A DNA stretch of 36,792 nt from Dehalococcoidales bacterium (GTDB lineage: Bacteria; Chloroflexota; Dehalococcoidia; Dehalococcoidales; RBG-16-60-22): contig JAUWGD010000002.1 in the NCBI GenBank assembly GCA_030606585.1, forward strand, positions 1-36,792. The letters are read 5' to 3'. Made by a program: the position numbers and the translations under genes. Under the pieces are notes generated by a model. The model was not told where the DNA came from, did no database searches, and saw nothing but the letters and a program-made list of their open reading frames with translations. Positions within the stretch are counted from its first letter, which is position 1; each line of letters starts with the position of its first letter. This document shows, piece after piece, positions 13,330-31,477 of this stretch.

Positions 13330-13458
13330 TATTATGACACGAGGTGTTATAGTGCTAATATATAAAGGTGTAATTATTATATGGTTAAAATCAGTACCCG
13401 GGTTAATATAATTACCTGAGAATTATTTACCTGTTAAAAACTGAGGAGGTAGGAAATA

Positions 13459-14919
13459 GTGCAGATAAAACAAAAGTTAACCAAGATAGTCGGTGCCGCA
13501 AATGTTTCCGACGACCCCGGAGCACTTCTATCTTATTCCAGGGACTGTAGTCTCAGTACTCCTCGCATGCCCAATTACATAGCCAGACCGAAGAATACGG
13601 AAGAGGTGCAGGCTGTCATCAAGCTGGCCAACGAAAGCGGGGTACCGGTCGTCCCCTGCAGTTCGGGCATACACTTCTACGGAAACACCATTCCCAATAT
13701 GGGCGGTATTGTGCTGGATATGAGGAGGATGAACAAAATTCTGGACGTCGACCTGGACAATAAAATGGTGCGGGTCGAGCCCGGCGTTACCTGGGGGCAA
13801 TTGCAAGCAGAAACGGCGAAGTATAAAATGATGGGCCTCGGTCCGCTGCTGCCCCACCCCCTCAAGTCCGTGCTGACCAGCCACCTGGAAAGGGAACCGA
13901 TGCTGATACCCAAGTTCGAGTATGCCGGCAGCATGGTAACCGTGGAAGTGGTCTTCGCCGACGGCCAGGCGTTCCGAACCGGTTCAGCCTGCGTGCCCGG
14001 TTTTCCCGATAAAAGCATGGCTGAGGGTGTTAATCCCGGTGGACCGGGTTATCTGTCTTATCAGTGGCTCGTTCAGGGTGCTCAGGGAACTATGGGAGTG
14101 GTAACCTGGGCAAAGGTCAAGATGGCACCCAAGCCCAGGATAGACAAGACATTCTTCATTCCATTTGAACAGCTCGATGACGCCGTACAGATGGTTTACA
14201 GCATACAGCGGCGTATGATAGGTGAAGAATGCCTCATATTGAATGACGTAAACCTGGCCGCTATCCTGGCCAAGAAGTGGCCCGCGGATTATGAAAATCT
14301 CAAGAGAGTACTGGCGCCCTGGACCGTTATCCTGGTCTCCGGCGGCGGATGGAGACGCCCCGAAGAAAAAATAGAATACGAGGAAGACGGGCTGCGCGAA
14401 GCGGCTGCCGAACTGCATATCCCTGAACTGCCGACATCGCTGCCCGGGCTGCCCGGTATTGAAAGAGAACTCCCGGGAATCCTGCGCAATGCCTGGCCTG
14501 AGAAAAAGCCCTACTGGAAGTTTGCCGCCAAAGGTGCTTCTCAGGATGTTTTCTTTTATACGACGATGGACCGGGCATCCGAATTTACCCAGGTCCTGAG
14601 CCAGGTAGCTGCCGAAAGTGGCTATTGTATCGACGATATTGGCGTCTATGTACAACCCATGGAGTACGGACGTTCCTGTCACTTTGAATGCAGCTTCCCC
14701 TACAACCCGAACAATGGCGATGAAGTGGCGATAGTCAGTAACCTGTACGCCGAGGCTGCCGAGACCGCACTTGGTCTGGGCGGTTATTTCTCCAGACCGT
14801 ACGGCATCATAGCCGATATGGTCTACGAAAGAGCCGGGGGTTATTCAGCTGCTATGAAAAAAGTCAAGAAAATACTCGACCCCAATAATATCATGTCGCC
14901 CGGCAGACTATGCTTCTAG
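13459..14919 (+). CDS. FAD-binding PCMH-type oxidase/dehydrogenase (GlcD-like), trio copy 1 subunit A
   Basis: GTG start after GAGGAGG. Motifs: IVGAANVSDDP, EEVQAVIKLANESGVPVVP, MNKILDVDLDNKMVRVEPGVTWGQL. C-terminal FAD-oxidase tail ILDPNNIMSPGRLCF. Confidence 0.8.
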   Translation: MQIKQKLTKIVGAANVSDDPGALLSYSRDCSLSTPRMPNYIARPKNTEEVQAVIKLANESGVPVVPCSSGIHFYGNTIPNMGGIVLDMRRMNKILDVDLDNKMVRVEPGVTWGQLQAETAKYKMMGLGPLLPHPLKSVLTSHLEREPMLIPKFEYAGSMVTVEVVFADGQAFRTGSACVPGFPDKSMAEGVNPGGPGYLSYQWLVQGAQGTMGVVTWAKVKMAPKPRIDKTFFIPFEQLDDAVQMVYSIQRRMIGEECLILNDVNLAAILAKKWPADYENLKRVLAPWTVILVSGGGWRRPEEKIEYEEDGLREAAAELHIPELPTSLPGLPGIERELPGILRNAWPEKKPYWKFAAKGASQDVFFYTTMDRASEFTQVLSQVAAESGYCIDDIGVYVQPMEYGRSCHFECSFPYNPNNGDEVAIVSNLYAEAAETALGLGGYFSRPYGIIADMVYERAGGYSAAMKKVKKILDPNNIMSPGRLCF

Positions 14920-14950
14920 TTCAAATTAGATAATGTAAGTAGGTGAAAAA

Positions 14951-16210
14951 ATGTTGAAAGTTGAAGAATATAAGCATCAAGCATCGACATGTGTCAGGTG
15001 CAGCTACTGCAAGATGGTCGACCTTAACTGGGTAAAAAGCAGCCGGTTTTCACGACAGTGCCCGATTGACGTGAGATACAGATACAATCTTTATTCAGGT
15101 CACGGGCTCCTCCACGCGGCCCTGGCCGAGCTGGACGGCAAGCTGGACTTTACCCCGAAGCTCATGGACGCCCTGTGGCACTGCACACTTTGCGGCGGCT
15201 GCGATATAAGGTGTAAAAGGAACCTGGATGTAGAGGTACTCCAGGTAATCGAGACGCTGAGATGCCGGTGTGTCGAACAGGGGAACACCCTGCCCGAGCA
15301 CAAGATGCTGGCCGCTAATGTAAAGAAAAGCCACAATATATACGGCGCCGCCCACGGAACCCGCTTCAAATGGATGCCGAAAGACGTCAAGCCGGCTGCC
15401 AAAGCGGACATTCTCTATTTCGTCGGCGACCCGTCGTGTTACCGGCACCCGGAAATTGCCCAGGCTACCGTAACGCTGCTGAGCAAAGCCGGGATTAAGT
15501 TCATGGTACTGAAGGACGAATGGAGCAGCGGCCACGAACTGTTCGCCACGGCTCAACTGGAACTGGCGAAAGAAATGGCGGAGCATAATATTCAAGCCAT
15601 CAAGAACTCCGGCGTCAAGACGGTAATAACCAGCGACGCCGAAGCCTACAAGACACTCAAGGTGGACTATCCTAAGATTCTGGAAAAGTCCACTGAGGAT
15701 ATGCCTTATACCGTCCTGCACATCACGGAATATATAGACCAGCTGATGCAAGACGGTAAAATAAAGTTCAACCGGAAAGTCGCCATGAAGGTAACCTACC
15801 ATGACCCCTGCAACCTCGGCCGACTCGCCGACCCGTGGTATCACTGGGAACCGAAGTATGAATCGCCGAACATCGCCGTGGGTAAAAAGTGGCGGCGCGG
15901 GTACGACGGCATTTATGAGCCGCCGCGGAATATTCTCAAAGGGATAAGGGGAATAGAGCTTATCGAAATGGACAGGCACCATGATAATGCCTGGTGCTGC
16001 GGCTACGGCGGCGGTGTCGGGGTGGCTTTCCCTGACGACGCTATGTGGACGGCCGGTGAGCGGACGGAAGAAGCCCAACTAACCGGCGCCGAGGCCATAG
16101 TAAGCTGCTGTCCCAACTGTAAGGACATCCTCGGTCAGGCCGCTGAGGCGGATAGTACCGGGATGAAAGTTTATGATATTACCGAAGTAATGCTTCGGGC
16201 AATCAGGTAG
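14951..16210 (+). CDS. (Fe-S)-binding protein with ferredoxin-type Cys motifs and CCG domains (HdrD/GlcF-like), trio copy 1
   Basis: CVRCSYCK...CP and CTLCGGCDIRC motifs. The second CCG domain is intact (YHDPCNLGR, AWCCGYGGG, SCCPNCKD). The first CCG domain is degenerate (see findings). Confidence 0.8.
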   Translation: MLKVEEYKHQASTCVRCSYCKMVDLNWVKSSRFSRQCPIDVRYRYNLYSGHGLLHAALAELDGKLDFTPKLMDALWHCTLCGGCDIRCKRNLDVEVLQVIETLRCRCVEQGNTLPEHKMLAANVKKSHNIYGAAHGTRFKWMPKDVKPAAKADILYFVGDPSCYRHPEIAQATVTLLSKAGIKFMVLKDEWSSGHELFATAQLELAKEMAEHNIQAIKNSGVKTVITSDAEAYKTLKVDYPKILEKSTEDMPYTVLHITEYIDQLMQDGKIKFNRKVAMKVTYHDPCNLGRLADPWYHWEPKYESPNIAVGKKWRRGYDGIYEPPRNILKGIRGIELIEMDRHHDNAWCCGYGGGVGVAFPDDAMWTAGERTEEAQLTGAEAIVSCCPNCKDILGQAAEADSTGMKVYDITEVMLRAIR

Positions 16211-16232
16211 AATAAGATTAAAGGAGATAACG

Positions 16233-17711
16233 ATGAGCATACCTAAAGAAGCTTATCAGACACTGCAATCCATTGTCGGGCCCGAATGGGTTAGTGATGA
16301 CCCGGCCATCTGTGAAGCCGACCGCTACTGTAGTCTGTCCGACCCTACCGATGAAAAACGCCGGCCCGGATGCAGCATCGAGCCGTCCAGCACCGATGAG
16401 GTACAGGCTATCGTCAAAGTAGCCAACCGGTACAAGCTGCCCTTCGTGGTTACCAGTACTTTCTACAGTTCCGGTACCTACGCCAGGAAGGAAAACTCCA
16501 TCCTCATCGATTTGAAGCGGATGAATAAGCTCGAGATAGATGAGAAAAACCAGTACGCTATTGTCGAGCCGGGAGTGACCTTCTCCGCCCTTCAGGCAGA
16601 CCTGTTTAAGATGGGACTTTGTACCTTCGTGCCGGGATGCGGCGGCCAGGCTTCCGTCGTAGCCAATACGGTCAATATGGGTGATGCTCCTATCGGCTGG
16701 AGGCACGGCCTCGGTTATCAGCGGCTGCTGGGCGTCGAGTGGGTGCTGCCCGAGGGTGATATACTGAAGATGGGCTCGCTTTCAAATGCGAATGATTTCT
16801 TCTGGGGCGAGGGACCCGGTCCCGACCTGCGCGGTCTGCTGCGGGGATGCGCCGGCCACCAGTCGAAGCTCGGGATTATCACCCGGATTGGCGTCAAGGT
16901 ATTCCCCTTCATTTCCGAAGAGCTCGAACCGTCCGGCTGGTCATACCATACCACCATGATGTTACCGACCAACAGGTTTAAATGGTATAATATCCGTTTT
17001 TACTCCCACGAGGATATCATCAATGCCATGTTCGAAATAGGCCGGTGTGAGATAGCTCTGGTGGTAATGACGGTACCCCCGATATTCAGGGGTGTCGCCA
17101 GGAGCAGGGGTGTGGGCTGCGGCGGGTTCTGGGAGTACTGGAAGGAAGCGGGACCCAAGCTCGCGCGGAAGCAGGAAGACCTCAGGGTATTGCTGTATGG
17201 TATCGGTTCAGACAAACGCCTGGAATACGAAGAGAAGGTTTTGCTGGATATAGTCAAGGATTTCAACGGCTCGGCCCGTGAAGCGCCCTGCCAGGATGAA
17301 ACGAACTTCATGGCCGCCGATGCCATCTGCGCTAATGTCGTCGGGGGGAGGTTCGCTTCCGAGGTCTCTTACGAGTCCATCAACCAGGCCACGAGGTACA
17401 GCAAGGAAGTCGATAAAATAACGGACGCACATAGACCTCCGATATTGCAGGAATACAACACCACGGACTGGATTTGCCCTTATGAACTTGGATATGTCGC
17501 CAAGATGGAATGCCTGCGTATGGCGGCCGCTGAAGATAATTATGCGCTGCAGGAGTGGAAGCGCGACGTCGAGGTAGTCTGCGCCGAAAGAGGCGCTTAC
17601 GCACTGGTACCCAATAGTGACGTTTTCGGTCCCGTCTGGGGGAACTACCCTGAAAAAGAAGATAAAATCAGGGCAGCCTTTGACCCTAACCACGTTTCTT
17701 CTCCTGAATAG
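16233..17711 (+). CDS. FAD-binding PCMH-type oxidase family protein, trio copy 1 subunit B
   Basis: AAAGGAG RBS. Motifs: KEAYQTLQSIVGPEWVSDDPA, DEVQAIVKVANRYKLPF, MNKLEIDEKNQYAIVEPGVTF, LLGVEWVLPEGDILKMGS, GPGPDLRGLLRG. C-terminal IRAAFDPNHV. Confidence 0.75.
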   Translation: MSIPKEAYQTLQSIVGPEWVSDDPAICEADRYCSLSDPTDEKRRPGCSIEPSSTDEVQAIVKVANRYKLPFVVTSTFYSSGTYARKENSILIDLKRMNKLEIDEKNQYAIVEPGVTFSALQADLFKMGLCTFVPGCGGQASVVANTVNMGDAPIGWRHGLGYQRLLGVEWVLPEGDILKMGSLSNANDFFWGEGPGPDLRGLLRGCAGHQSKLGIITRIGVKVFPFISEELEPSGWSYHTTMMLPTNRFKWYNIRFYSHEDIINAMFEIGRCEIALVVMTVPPIFRGVARSRGVGCGGFWEYWKEAGPKLARKQEDLRVLLYGIGSDKRLEYEEKVLLDIVKDFNGSAREAPCQDETNFMAADAICANVVGGRFASEVSYESINQATRYSKEVDKITDAHRPPILQEYNTTDWICPYELGYVAKMECLRMAAAEDNYALQEWKRDVEVVCAERGAYALVPNSDVFGPVWGNYPEKEDKIRAAFDPNHVSSPE

Positions 17712-17738
17712 GCGACTGGCCTGTAAAAAGGAGGCGAT

Positions 17739-19205
17739 ATGTTAAAGACAGCGCGTGAGTATACAGAAAGTCTGCGCCAGCTGAAACTGAACCTTTATCT
17801 GCTTGGCGAAAAGGTCGAGGACTGGGTTGATGAACCCATCATCAAGCCGTCAACCAATGCGGTAGCCATGACCTACAAGCTCGCCCACGAACCCGAAAAC
17901 GAGGCCCTGGCCGTCACGGAGTCCATGCTCACGGGGAAGAAGGTCAACAGGTTCATCTCCCTCTTCAAGAGCCCCGACGATATGGTCAGAAAAATTAAAC
18001 TGCAGAGAGAGCTGGGGCAGAGGACGGCCTGCTGCTTCCAGAGGTGTGTCGGCATGGACGGCATCAATGCTACCTTCAGCACTACTTTTGAAATCGATGA
18101 GAAATTCGGTACCGATTATCACCAGAGGTTTAAAAAATGGCTCGAATATATCCAGGAGAATGACCTGACTGTTGCCGGGGCCATGACCGATGTCAAGGGA
18201 CACCGCGGCGTGGCGCCCAGCCAGCAGAAAGACCCGGATATGTTCGTCCACATCTCCGAACGCCGGGATGACGGTATCATCATCCGTGGGGGCAAGGCCA
18301 ATATCACCGGGACAATAAATTCGCACGAGATGCTGCTCATGCCCACCCTCAGGATGCGGGAGGACGATAAAGACTACGCCGTCTGCTGTGCGGTACCCAC
18401 CGATGCCAAAGGGATAACCCACATCTATGGCCGGCAGTCCTGCGACACCCGCAAGCTGGAGGAAGGCGATATTGATGTCGGTAACTACGGCTTCGGCGGA
18501 CAAGAGACCCTGACCGTCTTCGAGGATGTCTTCGTCCCCTGGGAACGGGTCTTCATGAGCGGCGAATATGATTTCGCCATCATGCTGGTGGAACGTTTCG
18601 CCGCCTATCACCGACAGAGCTACGGCGGCTGCAAACCCGGCATCGCCGATGTCCTCATCGGTGCCACCGCCTCCATGGCCGATTACAACGGTGTGCGCCG
18701 GGCGGCTCATATCAGGGAAAAAATCGGGGAAATGATTCACCTCTCCGAGACAATACACGCCTGCGGTCTTGCCAGTGCCCACGAGGCCTGGAAGACCAAG
18801 GCGGGTAACTACCAGGCTCATATACTCCTGGCTAATGTATGCAAGCACAATACGACCAGATTCCCCTACGAGATAACCCGGCTTGCCGAGGACATCGCCG
18901 GGGGCATACTGGTCACCACCCCCTCCGAGAAGGACTTCAGACACCCGGAGATAGGAAAAATTATTGACAAGTACCTTAAAGGCGACCCCGCTTACTCCAC
19001 GGAGGAACGCTATCGCATGCTGTCGCTTATACACGCCATGTGCTTTGGCGTGGTGGCGCCCAGTTATCATACCGAGTCGATGCATGGCGCCGGTTCGCCG
19101 CAGGCGCAAAAGATTATGATTGAGCGCGAGACAGACATGGAGGCTAAACAACGCTTTGCCCGCAGTATCGCGGGCATCGATACACGAGAAGACCCGCTCG
19201 GTTAA
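17739..19205 (+). CDS. abfD: 4-hydroxybutyryl-CoA dehydratase / vinylacetyl-CoA delta-isomerase
   Basis: 488 aa. Alignable end to end with my recollection of Clostridium aminobutyricum AbfD: VAMTYKLA, CCFQRCVGMDG, YIQENDLTVAGAMTD, IYGRQSCDTRK, VERFAAYHRQSYGGCK, LLANVCKHNTTRFPYEITRLAEDIAGG, TESMHGAGSPQAQKIMI. Cluster ligands are present: C99, C103, H291, C298. AAAAGGAGG RBS. Confidence 0.9.
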   Translation: MLKTAREYTESLRQLKLNLYLLGEKVEDWVDEPIIKPSTNAVAMTYKLAHEPENEALAVTESMLTGKKVNRFISLFKSPDDMVRKIKLQRELGQRTACCFQRCVGMDGINATFSTTFEIDEKFGTDYHQRFKKWLEYIQENDLTVAGAMTDVKGHRGVAPSQQKDPDMFVHISERRDDGIIIRGGKANITGTINSHEMLLMPTLRMREDDKDYAVCCAVPTDAKGITHIYGRQSCDTRKLEEGDIDVGNYGFGGQETLTVFEDVFVPWERVFMSGEYDFAIMLVERFAAYHRQSYGGCKPGIADVLIGATASMADYNGVRRAAHIREKIGEMIHLSETIHACGLASAHEAWKTKAGNYQAHILLANVCKHNTTRFPYEITRLAEDIAGGILVTTPSEKDFRHPEIGKIIDKYLKGDPAYSTEERYRMLSLIHAMCFGVVAPSYHTESMHGAGSPQAQKIMIERETDMEAKQRFARSIAGIDTREDPLG

Positions 19206-19227
19206 ACCCGGGAAAGGAGGCGACATT

Positions 19228-20421
19228 ATGTCTTACTTTCTGAGTCCTAAAAAAATCCTGTTCGGAAAAAACATGTTGAGGAGGTTGGGCGCCGAGCTTG
19301 AAGGCCGCGGCAATAAAGCCATTTTAATTACAGATAAAAACATGGTCAAGCTCAGCGGAGAACTTGTCGAGGCGGTCAAGGCTGCCGGATACGAGGTTAA
19401 TATCTGGGACGGAGCGGAGCCGGAACCTTCGACGGCGGGCGCCATCGAGGCCGGCAAGTTGCTAAAAGAGTTCAAACCCCAGCTGGTTATCGGGTTCGGC
19501 GGGGGTTCGGTGCTGGACACGGCCAAAGCAGCCTGGGTGCTCTATGAGAACGCGGAAATCGTCCCGGAAGAAATCACGTCCGTTAATGTAAAGTCAAAAC
19601 TGAGCCCGCAGAAGAAAGCCAGATTCATGACCGTCCCTACCACCAGCGGCACCGGCTCGGATGTCACCTGGGCTATCGTGCTCTCGGAGGCCGCCGAACA
19701 CCGCAAGGTTGGCTTCGCCAACACGGAAATAGTGCCCGATATTACGCTGCTGGTCCCCGAATTTACCGCCGGCATGCCCAGGGCGCTGACGGCCAGCACC
19801 GGTCTGGACGTTCTGGGGCACGCCCTCGACGGATACACCGCCAGGCAGCAGACCGATTTCAGTGACGGACTCTGCCTGCAGGCCATGAAGCTGGCCTTCG
19901 AGTGGCTTCCCAGGGCCTGCGCCAACGGAGAAGACCTCGTCGCCAGGGAGAAAATGCAGAACGCCGCCACCGTGGCCGGTCTGGGATTCGGCAACAGCAA
20001 TACCTCACTCTGCCATGCCCTGGCACATACGCTCGGTGCTACTTTTAACATACCTCACGGTCGCTCCGTAGGCATAACATTACCTTACTCGCTGGAATAT
20101 ATCGCCGCCAATCCCGCCATCGAGGGGGCTCCCGACCCGGTGGAGAGGCTCAGCACCGCCGCCAGATTTGCCGGTATTAAAGATGAATCAGACCAAGCAG
20201 CCATTAAAAAGCTGATTCAGAAATTAAGAGACCTGGCGAAGGAAACGGGTGAGCCGCTGAGCCTGAAGGAAGCCGGCATCACGGAACAGCAGATGAACGA
20301 TAACCTGGACACCCTGGTCACCCTCGCCGGCAACGATGTCAATATGTACTCCAGTCCCTGCGAATGCCAGGACGAGAAGCTCCGCCAGCTCTTCCAGGAC
20401 ATCTGGAAAGGGACGATTTAA
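19228..20421 (+). CDS. iron-containing (group III) alcohol dehydrogenase, candidate 4-hydroxybutyrate dehydrogenase
   Basis: From ORF 19120..20421, trimmed to the ATG at 19228, which follows GGAAAGGAGG (19211..19220). The upstream part of the ORF overlaps the abfD 3' end. Fe-ADH motifs: GFGGGSVLDTAKA, PTTSGTGS, and the metal-His region LCHALAHTLGATFNIPHG. Confidence 0.85.
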   Translation: MSYFLSPKKILFGKNMLRRLGAELEGRGNKAILITDKNMVKLSGELVEAVKAAGYEVNIWDGAEPEPSTAGAIEAGKLLKEFKPQLVIGFGGGSVLDTAKAAWVLYENAEIVPEEITSVNVKSKLSPQKKARFMTVPTTSGTGSDVTWAIVLSEAAEHRKVGFANTEIVPDITLLVPEFTAGMPRALTASTGLDVLGHALDGYTARQQTDFSDGLCLQAMKLAFEWLPRACANGEDLVAREKMQNAATVAGLGFGNSNTSLCHALAHTLGATFNIPHGRSVGITLPYSLEYIAANPAIEGAPDPVERLSTAARFAGIKDESDQAAIKKLIQKLRDLAKETGEPLSLKEAGITEQQMNDNLDTLVTLAGNDVNMYSSPCECQDEKLRQLFQDIWKGTI

Positions 20422-20430
20422 AAACAGTTC

Positions 20431-20504
20431 GTCATTGCGAGCGTAGTGAAGCAATCCGCTACCCTGACAACGGATTGCTGCGGCACTTCGTGCCTCGCAA
20501 TGAC
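20431..20504. repeat. intergenic nested-palindrome (REP/MITE-like) element, GTCATTGCGAG...CTCGCAATGAC type
   Basis: Outer inverted repeat: GTCATTGCGAG (20431..20441) with CTCGCAATGAC (20494..20504). Inner inverted repeat: AGCAATCCG (20450..20458) with CGGATTGCT (20471..20479). It lies in the 125 nt gap after the ADH stop. Confidence 0.7.
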
Positions 20505-20546
20505 ATCGGGGATTCGGATTAAGGAGAAAATTAAGGAGCAATAGAT

Positions 20547-21407: not shown

Positions 21408-21518
21408 GATACCGACAGCCGTTAGCTATAAATTATAAAAACATGCCGTTTATTGATTGGTGCAATCGGTAGCCCGATTATGATAATATTAAGCAAATTC
21501 TAAACCTGTGGAGGCAAA

Positions 21519-24158: not shown

Positions 24159-24204
24159 AAAGCTCCCGCTCGTTTTCCTAAAGTAAATACGGAACTTCCC
24201 CGCT

Positions 24205-24300
24205 GTCATTCCCGCGCAGGCGGGAATCCAGAGGAGGAGTGGTGGTCTGGATTCTCGGGTCAAGCCTTCAGGCTGACTCAGGCTGAAGCCCGAGAATGAC
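24205..24300. repeat. intergenic nested-palindrome (REP/MITE-like) element, GTCATTCCCGCG...GAGAATGAC type
   Basis: Outer: GTCATTC (24205..24211) with GAATGAC (24294..24300). Hairpin: CCCGC-gcag-GCGGG (24211..24224). Further pairs: GAATCCAGA (24224..24232) with TCTGGATTC (24246..24254), and CTCGGG (24254..24259) with CCCGAG (24289..24294). Confidence 0.7.
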
Positions 24301-24333
24301 ATTATAAGACTATCTCGGTGAGGTATAACGGGA

Positions 24334-24906
24334 ATGATACTCATTATCGGAATAACCGGGGCTTCCGGGGTGATATACGGCATCCGGCTGCTCGAGGTGT
24401 TATCGTCCAATAAAGAAGTGGAAACACACCTCATCATTTCTGAAGTCGGAGAAGAAATTATAAGGCATGAGACCGATTGGCCGCCGGAACGGGTGAGAGC
24501 GCTGGCGGATGTCTGTTATGACATTAACGATATCGGCGCCAGGCTTGCCAGCGGCTCGTTTAAGAAGGACGGAATGGTGATTGCTCCCTGCAGCATGAAG
24601 ACCCTTTCGGCACTGGCGAACTCATACACGGACAACCTGCTTACCCGCGCCGCCGATACAGCCCTCAAGGAGCGGAAAAGGCTGGTCTTACTGGCGAGAG
24701 AGACCCCGCTTCACCTGGGTCACCTGAGAAACATGGTAAAGCTGACGGAGATGGGTGCTATCGTCTTCCCGCCGATTCCCGCCTTTTATCATAAGCCGAA
24801 AACAATCCGGGACCTGGTTGACCACACCGTAGGTAAGGTCCTGGATGTATTCGACATCAAGCATGAACTCTTCAAAAGGTGGGACGGCCTGGACAGCGAT
24901 GATTAG
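24334..24906 (+). CDS. ubiX: flavin prenyltransferase UbiX (prFMN synthase)
   Basis: 190 aa. Motifs: MILIIGITGASGVIYGIRLLEVL, MVIAPCSMKTLSALANSYTDNLLTRAADTALKERKRLVL, ARETPLHLGHLRNM. Confidence 0.9.
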   Translation: MILIIGITGASGVIYGIRLLEVLSSNKEVETHLIISEVGEEIIRHETDWPPERVRALADVCYDINDIGARLASGSFKKDGMVIAPCSMKTLSALANSYTDNLLTRAADTALKERKRLVLLARETPLHLGHLRNMVKLTEMGAIVFPPIPAFYHKPKTIRDLVDHTVGKVLDVFDIKHELFKRWDGLDSDD

Positions 24907-24920
24907 TAATCCGGCTTCTG

Positions 24921-25358
24921 TTAGCGCTTAAGCAGCGAGTCCAGTTTTTCCAGTCGGCTTGCCCTTTTCCTGACTACCAATGTAAACACCCTGGGAACAT
25001 CCGCCATCAGAGACCTTGATTGTTCGGCTGCGTCCGTATAGAACTGGATAATCGTCTTTTCTATCTCAACAGCCTGTTTCAAGAAATCGGCGTAGCCTGT
25101 TCCTTCTTTTATCGCCGTTTTCAGGGAATATTCATCCGGATCTATATTGAAAGCGAAACAACCCTCGATGGCATCGGTGATAACTCCGTAGTATGCCCTC
25201 TCCACCTGTACGATATTTTTCTTGTTTTCCCTGGCAAAAGAGAGCCAAATCTCGGCATCTTCGGCACTCTGCTGAGCCAGATTCTCGTAGAATTCCGCCG
25301 AGTCATTTTCAAGTTTCCTGGAGAAGGTGATGCCCTCAGAAGCCGTATGTAATATCAT
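24921..25358 (-). CDS. hypothetical protein, possible ferritin/rubrerythrin-like four-helix bundle without obvious di-iron ligands
   Basis: 145 aa. Starts 19 nt after the mmsA-like stop, with a GGGGG RBS. The repeated helical pattern (SAEFYENLAQQ..., IEKTIIQFYTDAAEQ) resembles ferritin-like domains. I cannot find the ExxH pairs. Confidence 0.4.
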   Translation of the reverse strand: MILHTASEGITFSRKLENDSAEFYENLAQQSAEDAEIWLSFARENKKNIVQVERAYYGVITDAIEGCFAFNIDPDEYSLKTAIKEGTGYADFLKQAVEIEKTIIQFYTDAAEQSRSLMADVPRVFTLVVRKRASRLEKLDSLLKR

Positions 25359-25377
25359 TTATAGTAAACCCCCGTTA

Positions 25378-26871
25378 TTAAAACCACCTTTGAATAACAA
25401 CCTTGCTTTCCGTAAAGAAGCGCACCGCTTCCCTGCCCTGCGTGTGCAACACACCGTAGAATGAGTCCTTCATGCCGCTAAAGGGGAAGAAGGCCATTGG
25501 CGCGACGATACCGATGTTGATACCAACATTACCGCTATCGATGTTGTATTGAAACTCCCGGGCGCTTTTCCCACTAGACGTAAAGATAGAGTTGCCGTTG
25601 CCAAACGCATTGTCATTGCTAATCTCTATGGCTTCATCAAGGTCTTTCACCCGCATAATGGACATTACCGGCCCGAAGATTTCCTCGGAGCCTATTTTCA
25701 TATCCGGTTTGACGTCCTCGAAGACAGTCGGACCGAGAAAACACGTTTCCGGGTAGTCGCCAACAATCTTGATATTTTCCCTGCCGTCGAGCCTGAGTTT
25801 CGCCCCCTGTTTGATACCGCTCTCTATATATTGAATGATTCTATCCTTTTTCTCTTTATCGCGCACCGGCCCCATTTGCACCGATTCATCGAGTCCGTAG
25901 CCAACCCTTATGCTCTTGATTTGTTCGATAACCCTGTCCACAAAATTCTTGTAGAAGGCGTCGTCTTCACCGACGATGACAGCGTTGGCGGCCGATAAGC
26001 ACCGCTGCCCGGCATTGCCGAAAAACGAGGTCATCATGGCTATTACGGTCCTATCTACATCGCAGTCGGGCATGATGGTCATGAAGTTCTTGGCGCCGCA
26101 TTGAGCGATAACCCTTTTGCCCGTCTCACCGCATCTCTTATAAATAACGTCTCTTCCGGTGGGGGTTGAGCCGACAAATGTTATGCCGACGATGTCCGGG
26201 TGCTCCAGCATACTGTTCACCACGCTTCTGCCGCCATGCACCATATTCCATACCCCCGGCGGGAATCCGGCTTCTTCTGCCAGTTCCGTCAGCTTGGTTT
26301 GACTGTTGGGGACTTCGCTGGAGGGTTTTACTATCACGCAGTTTCCGGTAGCCACGGCGTACGGCGCCGACCACAGCGGAATCATGAAAGGAAAGTTAAA
26401 GGGACCTATGATACCGAAAACTCCCAGGGGGGTGGGAATTACAAACTCGTCAATGCCGTGAGCAATATCCTCCGAATAATATCCCTGCATCAGGGTGGGG
26501 ATGCCACAGGCAACCTCCACGTTTTCGATACCGCGCCGGGTCTCGCCCCTCGATTCATCAATGGTCTTGCCGTGTTCCTGTGTCTGAATTCGGCTTACTT
26601 CTTCAAAATTCTCTTCCAGCAGCTCTTTCAGTCGGTAGAGATATCTCGCTCTGGCTACCGGCGTCGTCCTTCGCCAGTCTGGGAAGGCTGCTTTAGCCGC
26701 TTCTACGGCGGCATCCATTTCTTCCCCGGTCGAGATGGGTACTTTAGCAATCGTCTGGTAAGTAGCGGGGTTTACCACATCTATGATTTCACCCTTGGAT
26801 TCCACCCACTCGCCGTCAATATAATTTTTAAGTGTTCTGACCTCTTTAATCGGTTCTTCCAGAAGAGCCAT
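25378..26871 (-). CDS. mmsA: CoA-acylating methylmalonate/malonate-semialdehyde dehydrogenase (ALDH family, MmsA/IolA type)
   Basis: 497 aa. Blocks match my recollection of B. subtilis IolA: YIDGEWVESKGEIIDVVNPAT, GETRRGIENVEVACGIP, GPFNFPFMIPLWSAPYAVATGNCVIVKPS, GAKN, AGQRC (catalytic Cys), PMAFFPFSGMKDSFYG. GAGGAGG RBS. Confidence 0.85.
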   Translation of the reverse strand: MALLEEPIKEVRTLKNYIDGEWVESKGEIIDVVNPATYQTIAKVPISTGEEMDAAVEAAKAAFPDWRRTTPVARARYLYRLKELLEENFEEVSRIQTQEHGKTIDESRGETRRGIENVEVACGIPTLMQGYYSEDIAHGIDEFVIPTPLGVFGIIGPFNFPFMIPLWSAPYAVATGNCVIVKPSSEVPNSQTKLTELAEEAGFPPGVWNMVHGGRSVVNSMLEHPDIVGITFVGSTPTGRDVIYKRCGETGKRVIAQCGAKNFMTIMPDCDVDRTVIAMMTSFFGNAGQRCLSAANAVIVGEDDAFYKNFVDRVIEQIKSIRVGYGLDESVQMGPVRDKEKKDRIIQYIESGIKQGAKLRLDGRENIKIVGDYPETCFLGPTVFEDVKPDMKIGSEEIFGPVMSIMRVKDLDEAIEISNDNAFGNGNSIFTSSGKSAREFQYNIDSGNVGINIGIVAPMAFFPFSGMKDSFYGVLHTQGREAVRFFTESKVVIQRWF

Positions 26872-27015
26872 TTTTAAAACTCCTCCTCTTTAAATTTTTA
26901 CCGGGTATTGGATTTATCAGGTTCACCCCGGGGATTCTAATACCCCGCAGCTATCTTCGTTATTACGTGTGAAACCTCTCAGGGAAAAGAGGGCTATGAT
27001 ATCAATCAGGCAATG

Positions 27016-28689: not shown

Positions 28690-28707
28690 GTCTCAATCCT
28701 TCCCTTG

Positions 28708-29979
28708 TTAGATTGCCTGTTTTACGAGGTTGGTAACATCAAAGACCTTCATCTTGTCGCCCGATGTATTGATGGCATCCTTAAAATTCATCTCACACCA
28801 CGGGCAGGCGCTTACTATCGCCTCAGCGCCGGTGGCCTTCGCCTCCTCAATCCTTTCAGTAGCCGTCCAGTTGGAGAAGTCGGGATAGGTTTCTCTTGTT
28901 CCGCCGCCGGCGCCGCAGCACCAGGCATACTCCCTGATTCTTTCCATTTCCACCAGCTCTATGCCGGGGATACTCTTAAGCACATCTCGCGGCGGGTCAT
29001 AGACACCCCAGGCCCCGTTATACCTGGGTTTTTTAGGCTCATAAATTACTATCTGGTTTTTGATTTTCTTCTCTTTGCCTTCCCAGGGTACGTACGGCTC
29101 TCCACGCCTGCCCAGGTGGCAGGGGTCGTGGTAGGTAACGCGCATTGGTACGGTCTTGCTGAATTTAAGCTTGCCTTCCTTAATCAGGCGGTCGTAATAC
29201 TGCACGGTATGGAGAATCTCGAACTTCGCCCCCAGGGGGGGATAAAGGCGGTTAAAGGCATGATAGCAATCGGCGCAGGGGGTTACCACCGTCTTAACAC
29301 CGGCGGCAGTCCAGGCCTTGATGGTATTTTCCGCCAGCCTGGTGAACTCTTCTTTATAGCCCATGTCATAGGCTCTACCGCCGCAACAGGGCTCGTTTTC
29401 TCCCATGATTCCGATATCAACACCGGCATTCTTTAGAATGGTTACGGCCGTCCGGGCCGTTTCCTGAAGTTCTTCATCGTAGCTGAACCGGCAGCCGGCG
29501 TGGAAGAGAACTTCCGCCGACTCTCCGGGAACGCGCTTGATGTCCAAGCCTTCAGCCCAGTCGCCGCGTCCGGCCGCGGGTTTCTCCATCATGTTGTTTT
29601 CTTTGCGGAGATGTTCGATAAGGGCCGTATGCTGCGGCAGTACCTGGCCATCCTCAACCAGCCTGAATTTTAACTCATGTATCATTTCCAGCGGTTCCAG
29701 GTTGTAGCGGCAAATTTTATCGGAAACGTCACAGGACCCGCAGGTCGTGCATTTATAAACTATATCTACTACCCTATCGGAATAAGTGCTCTGGCCGTTC
29801 AGGAGTGACAGGGCGACGGCATACCTGCCGCGCGCGGAGTAACTCAGGAAATTATTATAGGCTATACTGGGACAGCCTTTGGCAAACCTCCAACTCTTTA
29901 CCTGGTCAAATGGAATCCATTTACAATACGAGCACTGGCTGCACCTTTCCATATCAGCTTTATAGTCTTCTAGCGCCAC
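28708..29979 (-). CDS. (Fe-S)-binding protein with two intact CCG domains (HdrD/GlcF-like), trio copy 2
   Basis: GTG start at 29979, consistent with the N-terminal length of the paralogue. CSQCSYCK and CTTCGSCD motifs. CCG domain 1: AGCRFS, EPCCGG, TPCADC. CCG domain 2: YHDPCHLGR, AWCCGAGGG, SACPWC. Confidence 0.8.
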   Translation of the reverse strand: MALEDYKADMERCSQCSYCKWIPFDQVKSWRFAKGCPSIAYNNFLSYSARGRYAVALSLLNGQSTYSDRVVDIVYKCTTCGSCDVSDKICRYNLEPLEMIHELKFRLVEDGQVLPQHTALIEHLRKENNMMEKPAAGRGDWAEGLDIKRVPGESAEVLFHAGCRFSYDEELQETARTAVTILKNAGVDIGIMGENEPCCGGRAYDMGYKEEFTRLAENTIKAWTAAGVKTVVTPCADCYHAFNRLYPPLGAKFEILHTVQYYDRLIKEGKLKFSKTVPMRVTYHDPCHLGRRGEPYVPWEGKEKKIKNQIVIYEPKKPRYNGAWGVYDPPRDVLKSIPGIELVEMERIREYAWCCGAGGGTRETYPDFSNWTATERIEEAKATGAEAIVSACPWCEMNFKDAINTSGDKMKVFDVTNLVKQAI

Positions 29980-30013
29980 TTTCTAATGCCTTCTTTCTTT
30001 GTTTCTCTTGCGC

Positions 30014-31477
30014 TTAAAAGCACAGCTTGCCCGGGTTCATTACGTTGTTGGGGTCGAATATTCCCTTAAGCTTCTTCAGCACGGTCGTAGTCTGCGCATC
30101 CCGCTTGTAGGCCATATCCGCCCAGATGCCGTAGGGTCGAGAGAAGAAAGCCCCCTGCTCAATCAGCTTTTCACTGGCTTTGGTCAGGAGCTGTTGCATC
30201 CCGGTTGCTTCTTTCGAATCATCCCTATCGAAGGGGAGGATAAACTCGCAATGTACATTGGCTCCCTGATGCAGGGGCTGGACGTACACACCGATATCCG
30301 AGGTCGGGTATCCACTTGCTTCGGCCACCGATTTCACCGTCTTGATATATTCCGGCGTCCTGTTGAGGGTGGTTATGAAGAGGATATCCTGATATCCCGC
30401 CTTATAGCCGAGTTTCCAGTAGGGCTCACGGGAGGTGCTGAGCAACGCTTTCAGCACATCATCACCCCTGGCTCCCGGAACCGCCGATTCGAGTTTAAGG
30501 CCGGATTTCCCGGCAATATCCGCGATGTCCTTCTCCTGGTACGCAACCCTTTCCTCGGGGAGTATGCTGCGTCCGGCTATGCCCACCAGAACCACCCAGG
30601 GCGGCAGCTCCTTCATTAACGCTTTAATCCCACCGGGGCCGTCTCCAAGGATATATGCCAAGCTTGAATTATTTATTAATAAAAGCTCGTCGGCAAACCT
30701 GAATTTCAGCAGCCGGTAAGTAAAATCAAACAGGTCATCAGGTTTCCGGGCCGGTACAATGAAGAGCTTGTGGGGGGCGGGTAATATCTCGCATTTTACC
30801 GATGCCCAGGTCACGATACCCATGCTACCCTGGGCGGCGGAGACGAATCTGTAGAAATCCGCCTGCCCGGGACCTGTAGCACCTGCCGGTGCCTGTTTCC
30901 TCTCCCAGGCATCTTCCATCGAAGTCCAGTTGCCGGCGTCGCCGGTTACCAGTTTATTGCCGTCTCCCCAGATAATTTCATTGCATCGTAACGGGTCGAG
31001 CGACGCCCACAGCTGCCGGGGAATGAGGGTGGGCTCCCTTTCCAGGAGGCTGGCTACTACCGACTTGCCGGCCCGTGGGAGCAAAGGTGTGGTAAGCCTC
31101 AGGCCTTCTTTAGCCAGTTCGGGCTGGAGTTCGGTGTAGGTTACTCCCGGCTCAATCATCGCCACCCTGTTTCGACGGTCGATTCTCATAATCTTCTTCA
31201 TTCCGCTCATGTCCACAATGACCGCTCCCGGTACGCTGGGAACAGTATCACCGCGGAAGCGTGGCGGTCCCGAACTCACCGGAACTAGCGGTGTGGCCGT
31301 CTGATTGGCCCATCTGACAATCGCCTGAACCTCATCGGCGCTCCCGGGCTTGATTATTAACCGGGGCTTTACAGGTTTGACGAAGCTTAAATCCTTGGAA
31401 TAGGCATCCAACGCTTCAGGGTCATCGCTAACACATTCCGAACCTACGATACCGGCCAACTCATCTTTTAAAGCCAT
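30014..31477 (-). CDS. FAD-binding PCMH-type oxidase/dehydrogenase (GlcD-like), trio copy 2 subunit A'
   Basis: Paralogue of 13459..14919. Shared motifs: IVGSECVSDDP, DEVQAIVRWANQTATPLVP, LEREPTLIP, QGSMGIVTWA, DIGVYVQP, FSRPYGI, IFDPNNVMNPGKLCF. Confidence 0.8.
   Translation of the reverse strand: MALKDELAGIVGSECVSDDPEALDAYSKDLSFVKPVKPRLIIKPGSADEVQAIVRWANQTATPLVPVSSGPPRFRGDTVPSVPGAVIVDMSGMKKIMRIDRRNRVAMIEPGVTYTELQPELAKEGLRLTTPLLPRAGKSVVASLLEREPTLIPRQLWASLDPLRCNEIIWGDGNKLVTGDAGNWTSMEDAWERKQAPAGATGPGQADFYRFVSAAQGSMGIVTWASVKCEILPAPHKLFIVPARKPDDLFDFTYRLLKFRFADELLLINNSSLAYILGDGPGGIKALMKELPPWVVLVGIAGRSILPEERVAYQEKDIADIAGKSGLKLESAVPGARGDDVLKALLSTSREPYWKLGYKAGYQDILFITTLNRTPEYIKTVKSVAEASGYPTSDIGVYVQPLHQGANVHCEFILPFDRDDSKEATGMQQLLTKASEKLIEQGAFFSRPYGIWADMAYKRDAQTTTVLKKLKGIFDPNNVMNPGKLCF

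Follow-up and report, generated by a model that had tools for sequence, protein, structure and literature searches.

Two putative flavoprotein/Fe-S dehydrogenase trios of a widespread anaerobic family in the catabolic island of a Dehalococcoidales bacterium

The window analysed here, a stretch of 36,792 nucleotides from a Dehalococcoidales bacterium, holds a catabolic island in which two convergent operons each encode a flavoprotein (A), an Fe-S protein (F) and a second flavoprotein (B) (Table 1). An earlier note had described these as mirror-image trios, and an ORF check of the window recovered all six reading frames with the same coordinates, strands and lengths. Gene spacing is operon-like, and SD sequences were found. 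HMM searches, which the note had proposed, located FAD_binding_4, FAD-oxidase_C, CCG and Fer4_8 in the expected subunits. No TM helix was predicted in any of the six trio proteins, and the window encodes neither an ETF nor a cytochrome or membrane partner, as had been observed before.

Table 1. Features of the two trio operons, in window coordinates
Feature	Position	Strand	Remarks
4-hydroxybutyrate/butyryl-CoA:acetate-type CoA-transferase	11968..13329	+	directly upstream of A1; position kept in type-1a loci
Sigma-70-like promoter match, 10/12	13385..13412	+	in 129-nt gap upstream of A1; consensus match only
A1, VAO/PCMH-type flavoprotein, 486 aa	13459..14919	+	FAD_binding_4 + FAD-oxidase_C
F1, HdrD/GlcF-like Fe-S protein, 419 aa	14951..16210	+	Fer4_8 + two CCG
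B1, second flavoprotein of copy 1, 492 aa	16233..17711	+	full-length FAD_binding_4
AbfD, 4-hydroxybutyryl-CoA dehydratase	17739..19205	+	27 nt downstream of B1
Fe-dependent alcohol dehydrogenase (Fe-ADH)	19228..20421	+	likely start ATG 19228
Small, weakly ferritin-like protein	24921..25358	-	last gene of copy-2 operon; kept in L008, L016, L017
CoA-acylating (methyl)malonate-semialdehyde dehydrogenase (MMSDH)	25378..26871	-	144 nt downstream of B2, same strand
B2, second flavoprotein of copy 2, 557 aa	27016..28689	-	full-length FAD_binding_4
F2, Fe-S protein of copy 2, 423 aa	28708..29979	-	Fer4_8 + two CCG
A2, flavoprotein of copy 2, type-2 subfamily, 487 aa	30014..31477	-	FAD_binding_4 + FAD-oxidase_C
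Sigma-70-like promoter match TTGACA-18-TACAAT, 11/12	31650..31679	-	upstream of A2; consensus match only

Gene context ties copy 1 to a genuine 4-hydroxybutyrate/AbfD block, while the partner of copy 2 is a CoA-acylating semialdehyde dehydrogenase. Both neighbouring enzymes had been named correctly: AbfD scores 660 bits to 1u8v with its cluster ligands conserved, and the aldehyde dehydrogenase following B2 lies above the MMSDH cut-off (520.9 vs 448.5 bits). The island further holds UbiD/UbiX (a VdcC-like hydroxyarylic acid decarboxylase), Mo enzymes, among them one that is pyrogallol-transhydroxylase-like, an MtaA-like methyltransferase and a DddP-like gene.

Within the window, the best non-self match of each trio protein is its slot partner. 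A1 and A2 are 38% identical over 493 columns (E=3e-113) and F1 and F2 38% over 431 columns (E=2e-95), whereas B1 and B2 align over the N-terminal ~235 residues only (41%, E=9e-53). By halves, the A pair shows 41% and 36% identity, compared with 41% and ~17% (global alignment) for the B pair; the slot-by-slot pairing put forward earlier is confirmed, with the correction that the B pair matches over half the length only. A and B proteins also match each other, at 25–34% identity (E between 1e-16 and 1e-21). The motifs listed for each pair were found by regular expression in both members at matching positions: VSDDP, (E/D)EVQA(V/I), LEREP(M/T)LIP, QG(T/S)MG(V/I)VTWA, DIGVYVQP, FSRPYGI and DPNN(I/V)M(S/N)PG(R/K)LCF in A; C(V/S)(R/Q)CSYCK, CT(L/T)CG(G/S)CD, VTYHDPC(N/H)LGR, AWCCG(Y/A)GGG and TGAEAIVS in F; and KEAY, SDDPA, LLGVEWV(L/M)P(E/D)G(D/E)ILK(M/I)GS and GPGP(D/S)L(R/K)GL(L/V)RG in B.

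The mirror-image orientation and identical internal gene order could be read as a recent inverted duplication or an assembly artefact, but this explanation has practically no probability left. Protein identity between the copies is merely 38–41%, and their nucleotide similarity is confined to stretches of at most 200 nt at 66–87%, in line with the lack of long identity remarked on before, which excludes both a recent event and an artefact. The same convergent arrangement also occurs in independent MAGs (loci L008, L011, L016 and L017). Furthermore, trios of other phyla are nearer to each copy than the other copy is: copy 1 is 40–60% and copy 2 53–80% identical to trios there, compared with 38% to one another, and in NJ trees the two do not meet before the base of the family. 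Copy 1 belongs to a type-1 and copy 2 to a type-2 subfamily, separated since ancient times. Since the copies fall into different ancient subfamilies, they do not stem from a local duplication, and of the earlier proposal of an old duplication only the exclusion of an artefact stands.

The A-F-B family is widespread among strict anaerobes, recently recognised and biochemically uncharacterised. In a scan of species-representative genomes, B relatives were encoded in 403 candidate stretches, and the neighbourhood survey suggested by the earlier note found the A-F-B order kept in 76 trios at 74 loci, in Dehalococcoidia, Desulfobacterota, Anaerolineae, Bathyarchaeia and other groups. A, F and B co-vary by subfamily. 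In papers of 2026, the family was proposed as the long-sought anaerobic benzene-activating enzyme: BzS1_12970/80/90 ('putative benzene dehydrogenase') and the ORM2a 'Magic' proteins #24-26 belong to the same family as the window trios. Copy 1 is as near to ORM2a #24-26 as to copy 2, with the same gene order and full-length identities of 38% (A), 38% (F) and 28% (B). WP_207682460.1 of D. magnum, listed at 36% to BzS1_12990 (supplement of PMC13416013), is 38% identical to B1, and its trio adjoins 4-hydroxybenzoyl-CoA-reductase-like genes and a CoA ligase.

VAO/PCMH homology was found for both flavoproteins. The C-terminus of A1 bears the family signature LEREP...GVYVQP...FSRPYG...PGRLCF, and the GlcD/D-LDH signature HxGDGNxH...GEHG is absent from A, with FSRPYG in its stead. 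In D-LDH and D2HGDH, the Glu of GEHG binds metal and its His is catalytic; across 71 A sequences the motif is replaced by RPYG at a level of at least 95%. Of the type-2 A sequences, A2 and L087-A were aligned, and both keep the two His of HxGxxxH. Because 58 A residues are at least 95% conserved across the family, including polar ones where GlcD has its catalytic motif, A rather than B could be the catalytic subunit.

F1 has two ferredoxin-type Cys motifs, a first CCG domain that has lost every cysteine (D,S,S,D), a loss overlooked by the earlier note, and an intact second one, while in F2 no cysteine is missing from either the ferredoxin motifs or the two CCG domains. The matches obtained with F are HdrB/C, TfrB and a 1042-aa Fe-S reductase. 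Two flavoproteins per complex, together with HdrB-like noncubane cluster sites and no quinone-linked or membrane partner encoded nearby, would also fit a reductive or bifurcating complex, in which F is fed by a low-potential donor (ferredoxin or a thiol couple) and the two flavins split or merge electron pairs to power a demanding reduction or activation step, as has been speculated about the benzene enzyme; FBEB/FBEC analogies have been discussed for BzS1_12970/80/90 and ORM2a. Such a role seems improbable: ferredoxin, ETF and Hdr/Mvh genes are missing from the window and from the recurrent neighbours, and the loss of one CCG site in both F1 and ORM2a-F speaks against a conserved disulfide-reducing active site. 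Moreover, to our knowledge, no bifurcating enzyme uses VAO-type flavoproteins.

The earlier note had compared B with GlcE. The full length of the B1 model (mean pLDDT 80) matches VAO, eugenol oxidase, PCMH and mLDHD (TM ~0.72), so that B is, as modelled, a complete VAO-fold protein and no equivalent of GlcE. Confidence is low for the B2 model (pLDDT 56). The FAD domain at the N-terminus of B2 is homologous to its B1 counterpart, the C-terminal half does not align with B1, and B2 orthologues across phyla are 64–70% identical. In B, the putative pyrophosphate loop lacks the Gly-rich character (STFYSSGTY / SSTFWSAWGF), which bears out its description as atypical and, like the low confidence of the B2 model, counts against the reading favoured below. 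The cap domain is the variable part of B and probably determines specificity; a search with that of B1, which is specific to the A-F-B family, matched no more than 57 50%-identity cluster representatives among 1.84 billion.

In sequence and in fold, B is matched best by the 4-phenol-oxidising group (vanillyl-alcohol dehydrogenase/oxidase, eugenol oxidase, 4-ethylphenol oxidase and PCMH). The trios might accordingly be PCMH-like benzylic or 4-alkylphenol dehydrogenases of anaerobic aromatic catabolism, hydroxylating or oxidising a para-hydroxybenzylic carbon via a quinone methide, with the Fe-S subunit in place of the PCMH cytochrome c subunit and neighbouring ADH/ALDH/AOR processing the alcohol and aldehyde products. 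UbiD/UbiX, the transhydroxylase-like enzyme and the methyltransferase of the island agree with this, as do the D. magnum neighbours, the XDH/4-HBCR-type genes recurrent near type-1c trios and the ADH and AOR genes beside type-2 trios. We nevertheless consider it unlikely: mLDHD fold matches are nearly as good, no solved structure could be aligned by sequence to the cap domain, where the Tyr/Tyr/Arg phenolate site would lie, and the chemistry of the copy-1 block (AbfT-like, AbfD, Fe-ADH) is that of aliphatic C4 compounds.

On balance, we favour the reading of each trio as a heterotrimeric, GlcDEF-like but non-GlcDEF dehydrogenase, with the copies representing the anciently separated types 1 and 2. 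We infer that the subunits form a complex, that B carries FAD and in which direction electrons flow. In such a complex, the substrate would bind beneath the variable cap domain of B and be oxidised by hydride transfer to FAD (in #24, the subunit of B type, Toth et al. located FAD together with a substrate pocket), while the conserved A would pair with B as GlcD does with GlcE. Electrons would leave singly, passing through the two cubane [4Fe-4S] clusters in F before arriving at its noncubane CCG cluster(s), at two sites in F2 and the second only in F1, and from there go to an acceptor that the window does not encode. Judging from operon partners, copy 2 might oxidise a small alcohol or hydroxy-acid to a semialdehyde that the co-transcribed CoA-acylating dehydrogenase takes up, and copy 1 might act on an acid or CoA-ester intermediate feeding the 4-hydroxybutyrate -> 4-hydroxybutyryl-CoA -> crotonyl-CoA block. 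The recurrence of Fe-ADH and AbfD with type-1a/1b trios and the type-2 neighbourhoods described below agree with this reading. The substrate guesses are weak, given the heterogeneous surroundings of type-1b/c relatives (144 Pfam families among 147 neighbours) and the UbiD/UbiX, Mo enzymes and DddP-like gene in the same island.

A less probable, though still plausible, alternative takes both trios for ordinary 2- or 3-/4-hydroxy-acid dehydrogenases, of the same kind as GlcDEF or LdhAB (Dld-II), C3/C4-specialised for glycolate, D-lactate, 3-hydroxypropionate, 3-hydroxyisobutyrate or 4-hydroxybutyrate and feeding the neighbouring semialdehyde and 4-hydroxybutyrate enzymes. Besides the subunit set, this is suggested by the MMSDH directly 3' of copy 2, by the CoA-transferase, AbfD and Fe-ADH around copy 1, and by the His pair retained in A2 and L087-A. 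Type-2 orthologues elsewhere also adjoin GntR/FCD regulators (GlcC/LldR type), TRAP carboxylate transporters, a PocR sensor, a glycerate-kinase-like gene and ADH (Zn-ADH), AOR and AKR genes. Against it stand the RPYG replacement, the implication of the nearest named relatives in benzene cultures and the type-1 neighbourhoods, in which type-1 relatives lie mostly among CoA-ester and aromatic-acid genes (ECH, 3HCDH, thiolase, CoA-ligase, 4-hydroxybenzoyl-CoA-reductase-like). The hydroxy-acid assignment made earlier is accordingly unproven.

Orthology with GlcDEF or D-lactate dehydrogenases can be rejected: the trio proteins score far below every curated GlcD/E/F, LdhH and YdiJ cut-off, match E. 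coli GlcDEF only partially at no more than 30% identity, and have no GEHG in A. The domain logic is nevertheless GlcDEF-like, as the earlier note recognised, each trio combining two VAO/PCMH-type flavoproteins with an HdrD/GlcF-like CCG protein; it likewise saw rightly that the trios differ from E. coli glcD-E-F in their A-FeS-B gene order and in the much larger B subunit (492/557 aa vs 350 aa for GlcE).

The island carries two three-gene units of the same internal order, each encoding a flavoprotein with FAD_binding_4 and FAD-oxidase_C domains (A), an HdrD/GlcF-like Fe-S protein (F) and a second flavoprotein (B); copy 1 comprises A1-F1-B1 and copy 2 comprises A2-F2-B2. Coordinates and strands of the six ORFs are exactly those of the earlier note, and all 17 of the motifs quoted in it were recovered by regular-expression search in both members of the respective pair, at matching positions. 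Slot-matched proteins are mutual best non-self matches within the window, as had been proposed: A1/A2 and F1/F2 each align over their full length at 38% identity (E=3e-113 and E=2e-95, respectively), and B1/B2 align at 41% identity over the N-terminal ~235 residues only (E=9e-53). When global alignments are split into halves, identity is 41% then 36% for A1/A2 and 41% then 17% for B1/B2. Intergenic gaps within each trio measure 18-34 nt, a Shine-Dalgarno-like sequence precedes every trio gene, and promoter-like matches lie 5' of both A1 and A2. The two trio-bearing operons are convergent and meet at ~24.9 kb. None of the six proteins contains a hydrophobic stretch compatible with a membrane helix. 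No Rfam element occurs in the window, nor any small ORF of interest in the gap 5' of A2. Divergent from A2 lies a gene for a chagasin-family (I42) peptidase-inhibitor domain protein, and a neighbouring 167-aa ORF is probably spurious, since it has no Pfam match and overlaps the UbiD-family gene on the opposite strand.

Coordinates of the two trios and of further features of the window
Feature	Position	Strand	Basis or description
A1	13459-14919	+	ORF call
F1	14951-16210	+	ORF call
B1	16233-17711	+	ORF call
A2	31477-30014	-	ORF call
F2	29979-28708	-	ORF call
B2	28689-27016	-	ORF call
Fe-ADH	19120-20421	+	ORF as listed
M24-family protein	9237-10457	+	DddP-like
Mo enzyme	21519-24158	+	Pyrogallol-hydroxytransferase-like N-terminal domain
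UbiX	24334-24906	+	Flavin prenyltransferase
UbiD-family decarboxylase	32370-33824	-	VdcC-like, 275 bits
Chagasin-family protein	31793-32275	+	I42 peptidase-inhibitor domain
167-aa ORF	32304-32807	+	
Peptidase_S15/PepX_C hydrolase	231-1934	-	CocE/NonD-type

Both copies belong to a large family. Of the 8,000 candidates scored per search, B1 and B2 each matched over 1,200 at E<=1e-5, and every matched protein is unnamed or bears a generic name. A scan covering one genome per species yielded 403 candidate stretches with a B relative, distributed over Dehalococcoidia, Anaerolineae, Desulfobacterota (including the cultured Desulfonema magnum), Syntrophorhabdaceae, Acidobacteriota, Bathyarchaeia and other taxa. 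In the fetched comparison loci (L-numbers below), 76 trios were found in 74 loci, every one in the order A-F-B. The window is syntenic with Dehalococcoidales MAG contigs at 78-99% protein identity, and the syntenic contigs L008, L011, L016 and L017 also carry the convergent second trio. Copy-1 proteins share 40-77% identity with trios of other lineages, but 38% with copy 2; copy-2 proteins share 53-80% with trios of Spirochaetota, Anaerolineae and Desulfatiglandaceae. A, F and B vary jointly from group to group, indicating that the trio evolves as a block. In neighbour-joining (distance) trees for A and for F, with the roots set by E. coli GlcD and GlcF, the last common ancestor of the two copies subtends 72 of 73 and 78 of 80 tips, respectively; copy 2 clusters only with the copy-2 subfamily (type 2), and copy 1 only with its close orthologues within the copy-1 subfamily (type 1, with branches 1a, 1b and 1c). 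Judged from identities and distance trees, the copies appear to represent two ancient subfamilies instead of a local duplication. The earlier note had described an old duplication that was not an artefact. Its second half stands, and the nucleotide comparison agrees with it in detecting short similar stretches but no long identity between the copies; a local duplication is contradicted by the subfamilies and the trees. A recent duplication or an assembly artefact is refuted by the divergence within the window, the independent MAGs, the relatives in other phyla and the trees.

The second flavoprotein differs most between the subfamilies in its cap. Pfam assigns both B1 and B2 a full-length FAD_binding_4 match and nothing recognisable beyond it, and among solved structures they match best the vanillyl-alcohol dehydrogenase/oxidase, eugenol oxidase and PCMH enzymes of the 4-phenol-oxidising group. 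In an AlphaFold2 model of B1, with a mean pLDDT of 80, the entire chain can be superposed on VAO, eugenol oxidase, PCMH and mouse LDHD at TM ~0.72, a full-length agreement from which B is predicted to be a complete two-domain VAO-fold protein and not a truncated, GlcE-like one. The corresponding B2 model, built on a shallow alignment, is of low confidence (pLDDT 56) and retrieves the same structures at TM ~0.5, lending the VAO fold weak support in this copy; profile and pairwise alignments of B2 (hhalign to GlcD and a PDB-chain profile search) end at residue ~236, where the FAD domain ends, short of the cap domain that would carry the Tyr/Tyr/Arg phenolate-binding site; this site and a residue for covalent flavin attachment mark the 4-phenol-oxidising subgroup. 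An H...H...E triad matched by eye in B2 was dropped, as its His residues vary among the aligned type-2 sequences. Within B, the FAD domain is the conserved part and the cap domain the variable one. Searching the B1 cap domain alone with phmmer against 1.84 billion cluster representatives gave only 57 matches; those longer than 450 aa are all 500-583 aa in length, except for one marginal 954-aa match (E=2.5e-4), and the cluster holding protein #24 of the benzene-culture organism ORM2a is among the 57 (E=1.6e-15). Given this variable cap and the placement of FAD and a putative substrate pocket in #24, the B-type subunit of ORM2a (Toth et al., 2026; PMC13101534), we infer that B carries the substrate site and sets specificity. 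The substrate site may instead lie in A, whose polar residues are strongly conserved.

A1 and A2 both combine FAD_binding_4 with FAD-oxidase_C in Pfam, and among solved structures they match the 4-phenol-oxidising VAO/PCMH group as well as D-lactate/D-2-hydroxyglutarate dehydrogenase-type enzymes. In the latter type of enzyme, the GlcD motif HxGDGNxH...GEHG supplies metal-binding His, His and Glu residues together with the catalytic His. At the region that reads HAGDGNMH...SGEHG in GlcD, the A proteins have MEYGRSCH or LHQGANVH followed by FSRPYG. GEHG is replaced by RPYG, with R446-P447-Y448-G449 conserved at 95% or more across 71 A sequences, and the two His of the motif are kept only in A2 and in the A protein of L087, the two type-2 A sequences aligned. 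The absence of the GlcD motif counts against a standard 2-hydroxy-acid mechanism in A. Conservation is even along the protein, with 58 positions at 95% or more family-wide, including LEREP, GxYVQP, FxRPYG and the C-terminal PGxLCF; ORM2a #26, of the A type, shares the C-terminal signature (GxYVQP...PGKLCF).

The Fe-S subunits F1 and F2 both contain Fer4_8 and two CCG domains in Pfam, and match HdrB/HdrC, TfrB, GlpC, LdhH and a 1042-residue Fe-S reductase. All cysteines of both ferredoxin-type motifs and both CCG domains are present in F2 and in most of its orthologues (6/9). In F1, the cysteines of the first CCG domain are replaced by D, S, S and D and the second domain is intact, a pattern found in 14/14 close type-1a orthologues. 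By analogy with HdrB, two noncubane clusters would be expected in F2 and one in F1. Elsewhere in the family, both CCG domains are retained in the D. magnum group, part of the group at 45-52% identity has lost cysteines in both, and degeneracy of both is seen in some type-1b proteins. ORM2a #25, the F-type protein encoded at 7667-8983 of locus L093, has lost the cysteines of the second CCG domain, opposite to F1; this agrees with the remark that two of the four motifs of #25 lack cysteines (Toth et al., 2026; PMC13101534).

Genomic context also differs between the two subfamilies. Copy 1 belongs to a long plus-strand operon that contains, in this order, DUF35 and SCP-x-type thiolase genes, a PimCD/AcrC-like acyl-CoA dehydrogenase pair and an M24 protein; there follow a flavocytochrome-c/TcuA-like flavoprotein, a 4-hydroxybutyrate-type CoA-transferase, A1-F1-B1, 4-hydroxybutyryl-CoA dehydratase (AbfD) and an Fe-ADH, and after these a hydrolase of enol-lactonase-like type, a Mo enzyme of the DMSO-reductase family whose N-domain is pyrogallol-transhydroxylase-like, and UbiX. 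The AbfD assignment is genuine, with a score of 660 bits to 1u8v and the Cys/His cluster ligands kept. As listed, the Fe-ADH ORF starts inside the final part of abfD; its likely start is the ATG at 19228, preceded by GGAGG. AbfD and/or Fe-ADH also adjoin type-1a and some type-1b trios elsewhere (L005-L018, L022, L026, L032). Neighbourhoods of distant type-1 trios are heterogeneous, with enoyl-CoA hydratases, 3-hydroxyacyl-CoA dehydrogenases, thiolases, CoA ligases/transferases, MarR regulators and 4-hydroxybenzoyl-CoA-reductase-like Mo-hydroxylases, and the type-1 context suggests that organic or aromatic acids are broken down in a CoA-dependent manner. Downstream of copy 2, on its strand, lie genes for a CoA-acylating (methyl)malonate-semialdehyde dehydrogenase (MMSDH; 520.9 bits against a cut-off of 448.5) and a small ferritin-like protein. 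Type-2 trios elsewhere adjoin aldehyde:ferredoxin oxidoreductase and Zn-ADH, aldo-keto reductase, GntR/FCD regulators, TRAP transporters, a PocR sensor kinase and a glycerate-kinase-like gene, a context that fits oxidation of a small hydroxy-acid or alcohol.

These contexts bear on what the trios may oxidise. The earlier note read them as two substrate-specialised hydroxy-acid or alcohol dehydrogenase complexes. Taken as ordinary C3/C4 hydroxy-acid dehydrogenases, this reading is favoured by the type-2 context and is plausible for copy 2. It is weakened by the missing GlcD motif and by the type-1 contexts, and as an account of the trios it is possible but rather doubtful. PCMH-like dehydrogenation of benzylic or 4-alkylphenol substrates draws on the best structural matches and on the aromatic genes that the island and D. 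magnum contain; we consider it unlikely.

The M24-family protein of the island has the DMSP lyase DddP as its best curated match (83 bits against a cut-off of 600, nearly full length). Its neighbours include AcrC/PimCD-like acyl-CoA dehydrogenases, two DMSO/TMAO-reductase-family Mo enzymes, an MtaA-like URO-D methyltransferase, the Fe-ADH and MMSDH (coordinates listed with it: 6826-9153, 1959-4163 on the minus strand, 21519-24158, and 33867-35201 on the minus strand). Fe-ADH and MMSDH correspond to the DddB/DddC roles in DMSP catabolism, and this set hints at organosulfur or acrylate metabolism. UbiX and the UbiD-family decarboxylase are split between the convergent trio operons, a sign that the island may include a prenyl-FMN (de)carboxylation step. 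The Mo enzyme with the pyrogallol-hydroxytransferase-like domain recurs directly beside type-1 trios of several lineages (L001/L019, L018, L029); a functional coupling is possible. Locus L002 (6325-14894) holds a type-1b trio whose B shares 48% identity with B1, and an SDR gene, two genes of the 3HCDH type and a BKACE gene flank it; these are homologous to PGR, TfD and TAL, three of the four phloroglucinol-pathway enzymes that have been characterised (PMC10470551); no 'cyclase'-family DPGC was seen in L002. A homologue (39% identity) of the Peptidase_S15/PepX_C hydrolase of the window also lies near this trio (L002 16709-18502). The only trio from a cultured organism among those retrieved, that of D. 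magnum (L078; CP061800, 2384657-2406168), neighbours an acyl-CoA dehydrogenase, a 4-hydroxybenzoyl-CoA-reductase-like Fer2/FAD_binding_5/MoCoBD set, a CoA ligase and a TRAP binding protein.

The family connects to proteins recently reported from benzene-degrading cultures. In a benzene-degrading sulfate reducer, BzS1_12970, BzS1_12980 and BzS1_12990 (respectively an FAD-binding oxidase of about 54 kDa, an Hdr-like Fe-S protein of about 47-48 kDa and another FAD-binding oxidase of about 66 kDa) make up about one fifth of the detected proteome and were named putative benzene dehydrogenase (BeDH) (Musat et al., 2026; PMC13416013). The orthologous ORM2a 'Magic' proteins #24-26 were detected more than any other protein in a methanogenic benzene culture and were modelled as a GlcDEF-like heterotrimer, with AF3 models that superpose on GlcDEF (Toth et al., 2026; PMC13101534). 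Identities among the benzene degraders (BzS1, the Pescadero MAG, Pelotomaculum BPL and ORM2a) are 63-89%, and homologues at 23-42% in NaphS2 and Desulfosarcina variabilis were said to 'likely serve other metabolic functions' (Musat et al., 2026; PMC13416013).

One link to the window runs through the D. magnum locus, whose protein WP_207682460.1 shares 38% identity with B1 along the full length and appears in the BLAST table of BzS1_12990 at 36% over 532 residues (PMC13416013 supplement). The accessions of window-protein relatives that were checked are absent from the BzS1 top-100 BLAST tables. A direct link was obtained through ORM2a #24, identified by cluster look-up as WAC08368.1; its locus, L093, encodes A, F and B (483, 438 and 581 aa) in this order of transcription. 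Copy 1 matches the ORM2a trio at full length in all three subunits (A 38% over 487, F 38% over 425 and B 28% over 520 residues), and by these identities it appears equally close to the benzene-culture trio and to copy 2. For copy 2, A (33%) and F (35%) align at full length and B (33%) over the N-terminal 295 residues only, the latter marking copy 2 as a more distant branch. Since these values of 28-38% compare with 63-89% among benzene degraders, the window trios are paralogues and not orthologues, the same conclusion that Musat et al. reached for the NaphS2 and D. variabilis homologues. The function of the reference proteins in benzene degradation is itself putative. In the literature on characterised GlcDEF-like anaerobic enzymes, only the two benzene papers were found (PMC13416013, PMC13101534), and a Desulfobacteraceae meta-network paper makes no mention of the A-F-B trio.

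Overall, the trios are probably dehydrogenases of the GlcDEF-like A-F-B family to which the benzene-culture proteins also belong; confidence is high for the family placement, moderate for the mechanism and low for the substrates. Each trio would form a heterotrimer with no predicted membrane-spanning helices, in which the substrate is dehydrogenated at the B flavin and A acts as the conserved partner flavoprotein. In F, electrons would travel via the two cubane clusters to the CCG cluster(s), and from there to an acceptor for which the window holds no gene. No ETF, cytochrome, ferredoxin, Hdr or membrane subunit is encoded in the window, in line with the earlier note as regards ETF, cytochrome and membrane subunits. 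A reductive or bifurcating module, as speculated for benzene, is very improbable. A bolder proposal, to which we give little credence, is that the family performs undescribed anaerobic flavin chemistry in which unactivated C-H bonds are activated oxidatively or by addition, as has been hypothesised for benzene, with the B cap selecting the substrate, the loss of either noncubane cluster from F tuning the electron-output potential, and copy 1 carrying out a related hard activation on a non-benzene substrate. If true, it would offer a second, independent handle on the mechanism.

The GlcDEF-like architecture was already known, and the A-F-B family was described bioinformatically and proteomically in 2026. 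The window contributes two further members, distant from each other, from a host group new to the family; it also adds that the family has no fewer than two deep subfamilies, that the B cap is its variable element, and that F loses either CCG site depending on the branch. Anaerobic benzene activation is a decades-old open problem for which the two 2026 studies propose the A-F-B trio as candidate enzyme. The family is large and old, its subfamilies travel as intact three-gene units, and the B cap is the variable and probably substrate-defining part. Paralogues also occur in ordinary-looking 4-hydroxybutyrate/semialdehyde catabolic operons, in organisms with no benzene link; their guessable substrates provide a tractable route to the generic reaction and electron acceptor, and they serve as a warning that the benzene-culture trio could be a downstream dehydrogenase instead of the activating enzyme. 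In subsurface Dehalococcoidia, Desulfobacterota and Bathyarchaeia, A-F-B is a redox module that is both abundant and unannotated.

Compared with known systems, the trios share with E. coli GlcDEF the joint encoding of two FAD_binding_4 flavoproteins and a Fer4/CCG Fe-S subunit (Pfam). They differ, as the earlier note had observed, in gene order (D-E-F in GlcDEF, A-F-B here) and in the size of the second flavoprotein, GlcE having 350 aa and B 492/557 aa, with a full VAO fold predicted for B1. Identities to E. coli GlcD/GlcE/GlcF are 22-30% over partial alignments, and NCBIfam scores lie 5-40-fold below the cut-offs (GlcD 57-106 bits against 567.9, GlcE 23 against 284, GlcF 22-30 against 333). 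Assignment to GlcDEF, LdhH, YdiJ, TfrB, GlpC or HdrB was rejected, every NCBIfam score falling far under its cut-off. The proposed GlcDEF/D-lactate dehydrogenase logic thus holds for subunit architecture and fails for family membership, given the missed cut-offs and the lost GlcD motif. With mLDHD, D2HGDH, LctD, YdiJ and Dld-II, A shares the fold and FAD-oxidase_C (E 1e-7 to 1e-19) but not the motif of metal-binding Glu and catalytic His, and those enzymes are single flavoproteins, or work with ETF or fused Fe-S domains, rather than forming an A-F-B trio. The 4-phenol-oxidising enzymes (the PCMH subunit PchF, vanillyl-alcohol oxidase/dehydrogenase, eugenol oxidase and 4-ethylphenol oxidase) are the best matches of B and good matches of A and have the same two-domain FAD and cap architecture. 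However, identity is only 17-22%, the trio adds a second flavoprotein subunit, and its partner is a CCG Fe-S protein and not cytochrome c or O2; no gene for a PchC-like cytochrome partner occurs in the window. With HdrD/HdrB-HdrC, TfrB, GlpC and LdhH-type proteins, F shares two ferredoxin-type Cys motifs at the N-terminus and two CCG domains after them, F2 with full C...CCG...CxxC sets and F1 without the first; in contrast, the trios have no membrane anchor or HdrE-like partner, and all curated cut-offs are missed. Relative to the BeDH/ORM2a trio, B1 is ~90 aa shorter than #24, the B2 cap domain has no detectable similarity to #24, and the host is Dehalococcoidia-like, with nothing tying it to benzene. 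The likenesses are the A-F-B order, the domain set and the sizes, one degenerate CCG domain in F (the first in F1, the second in ORM2a), and neighbours of the CoA-transferase, hydratase and CoA-ligase types, as in type-1 relatives such as L003.
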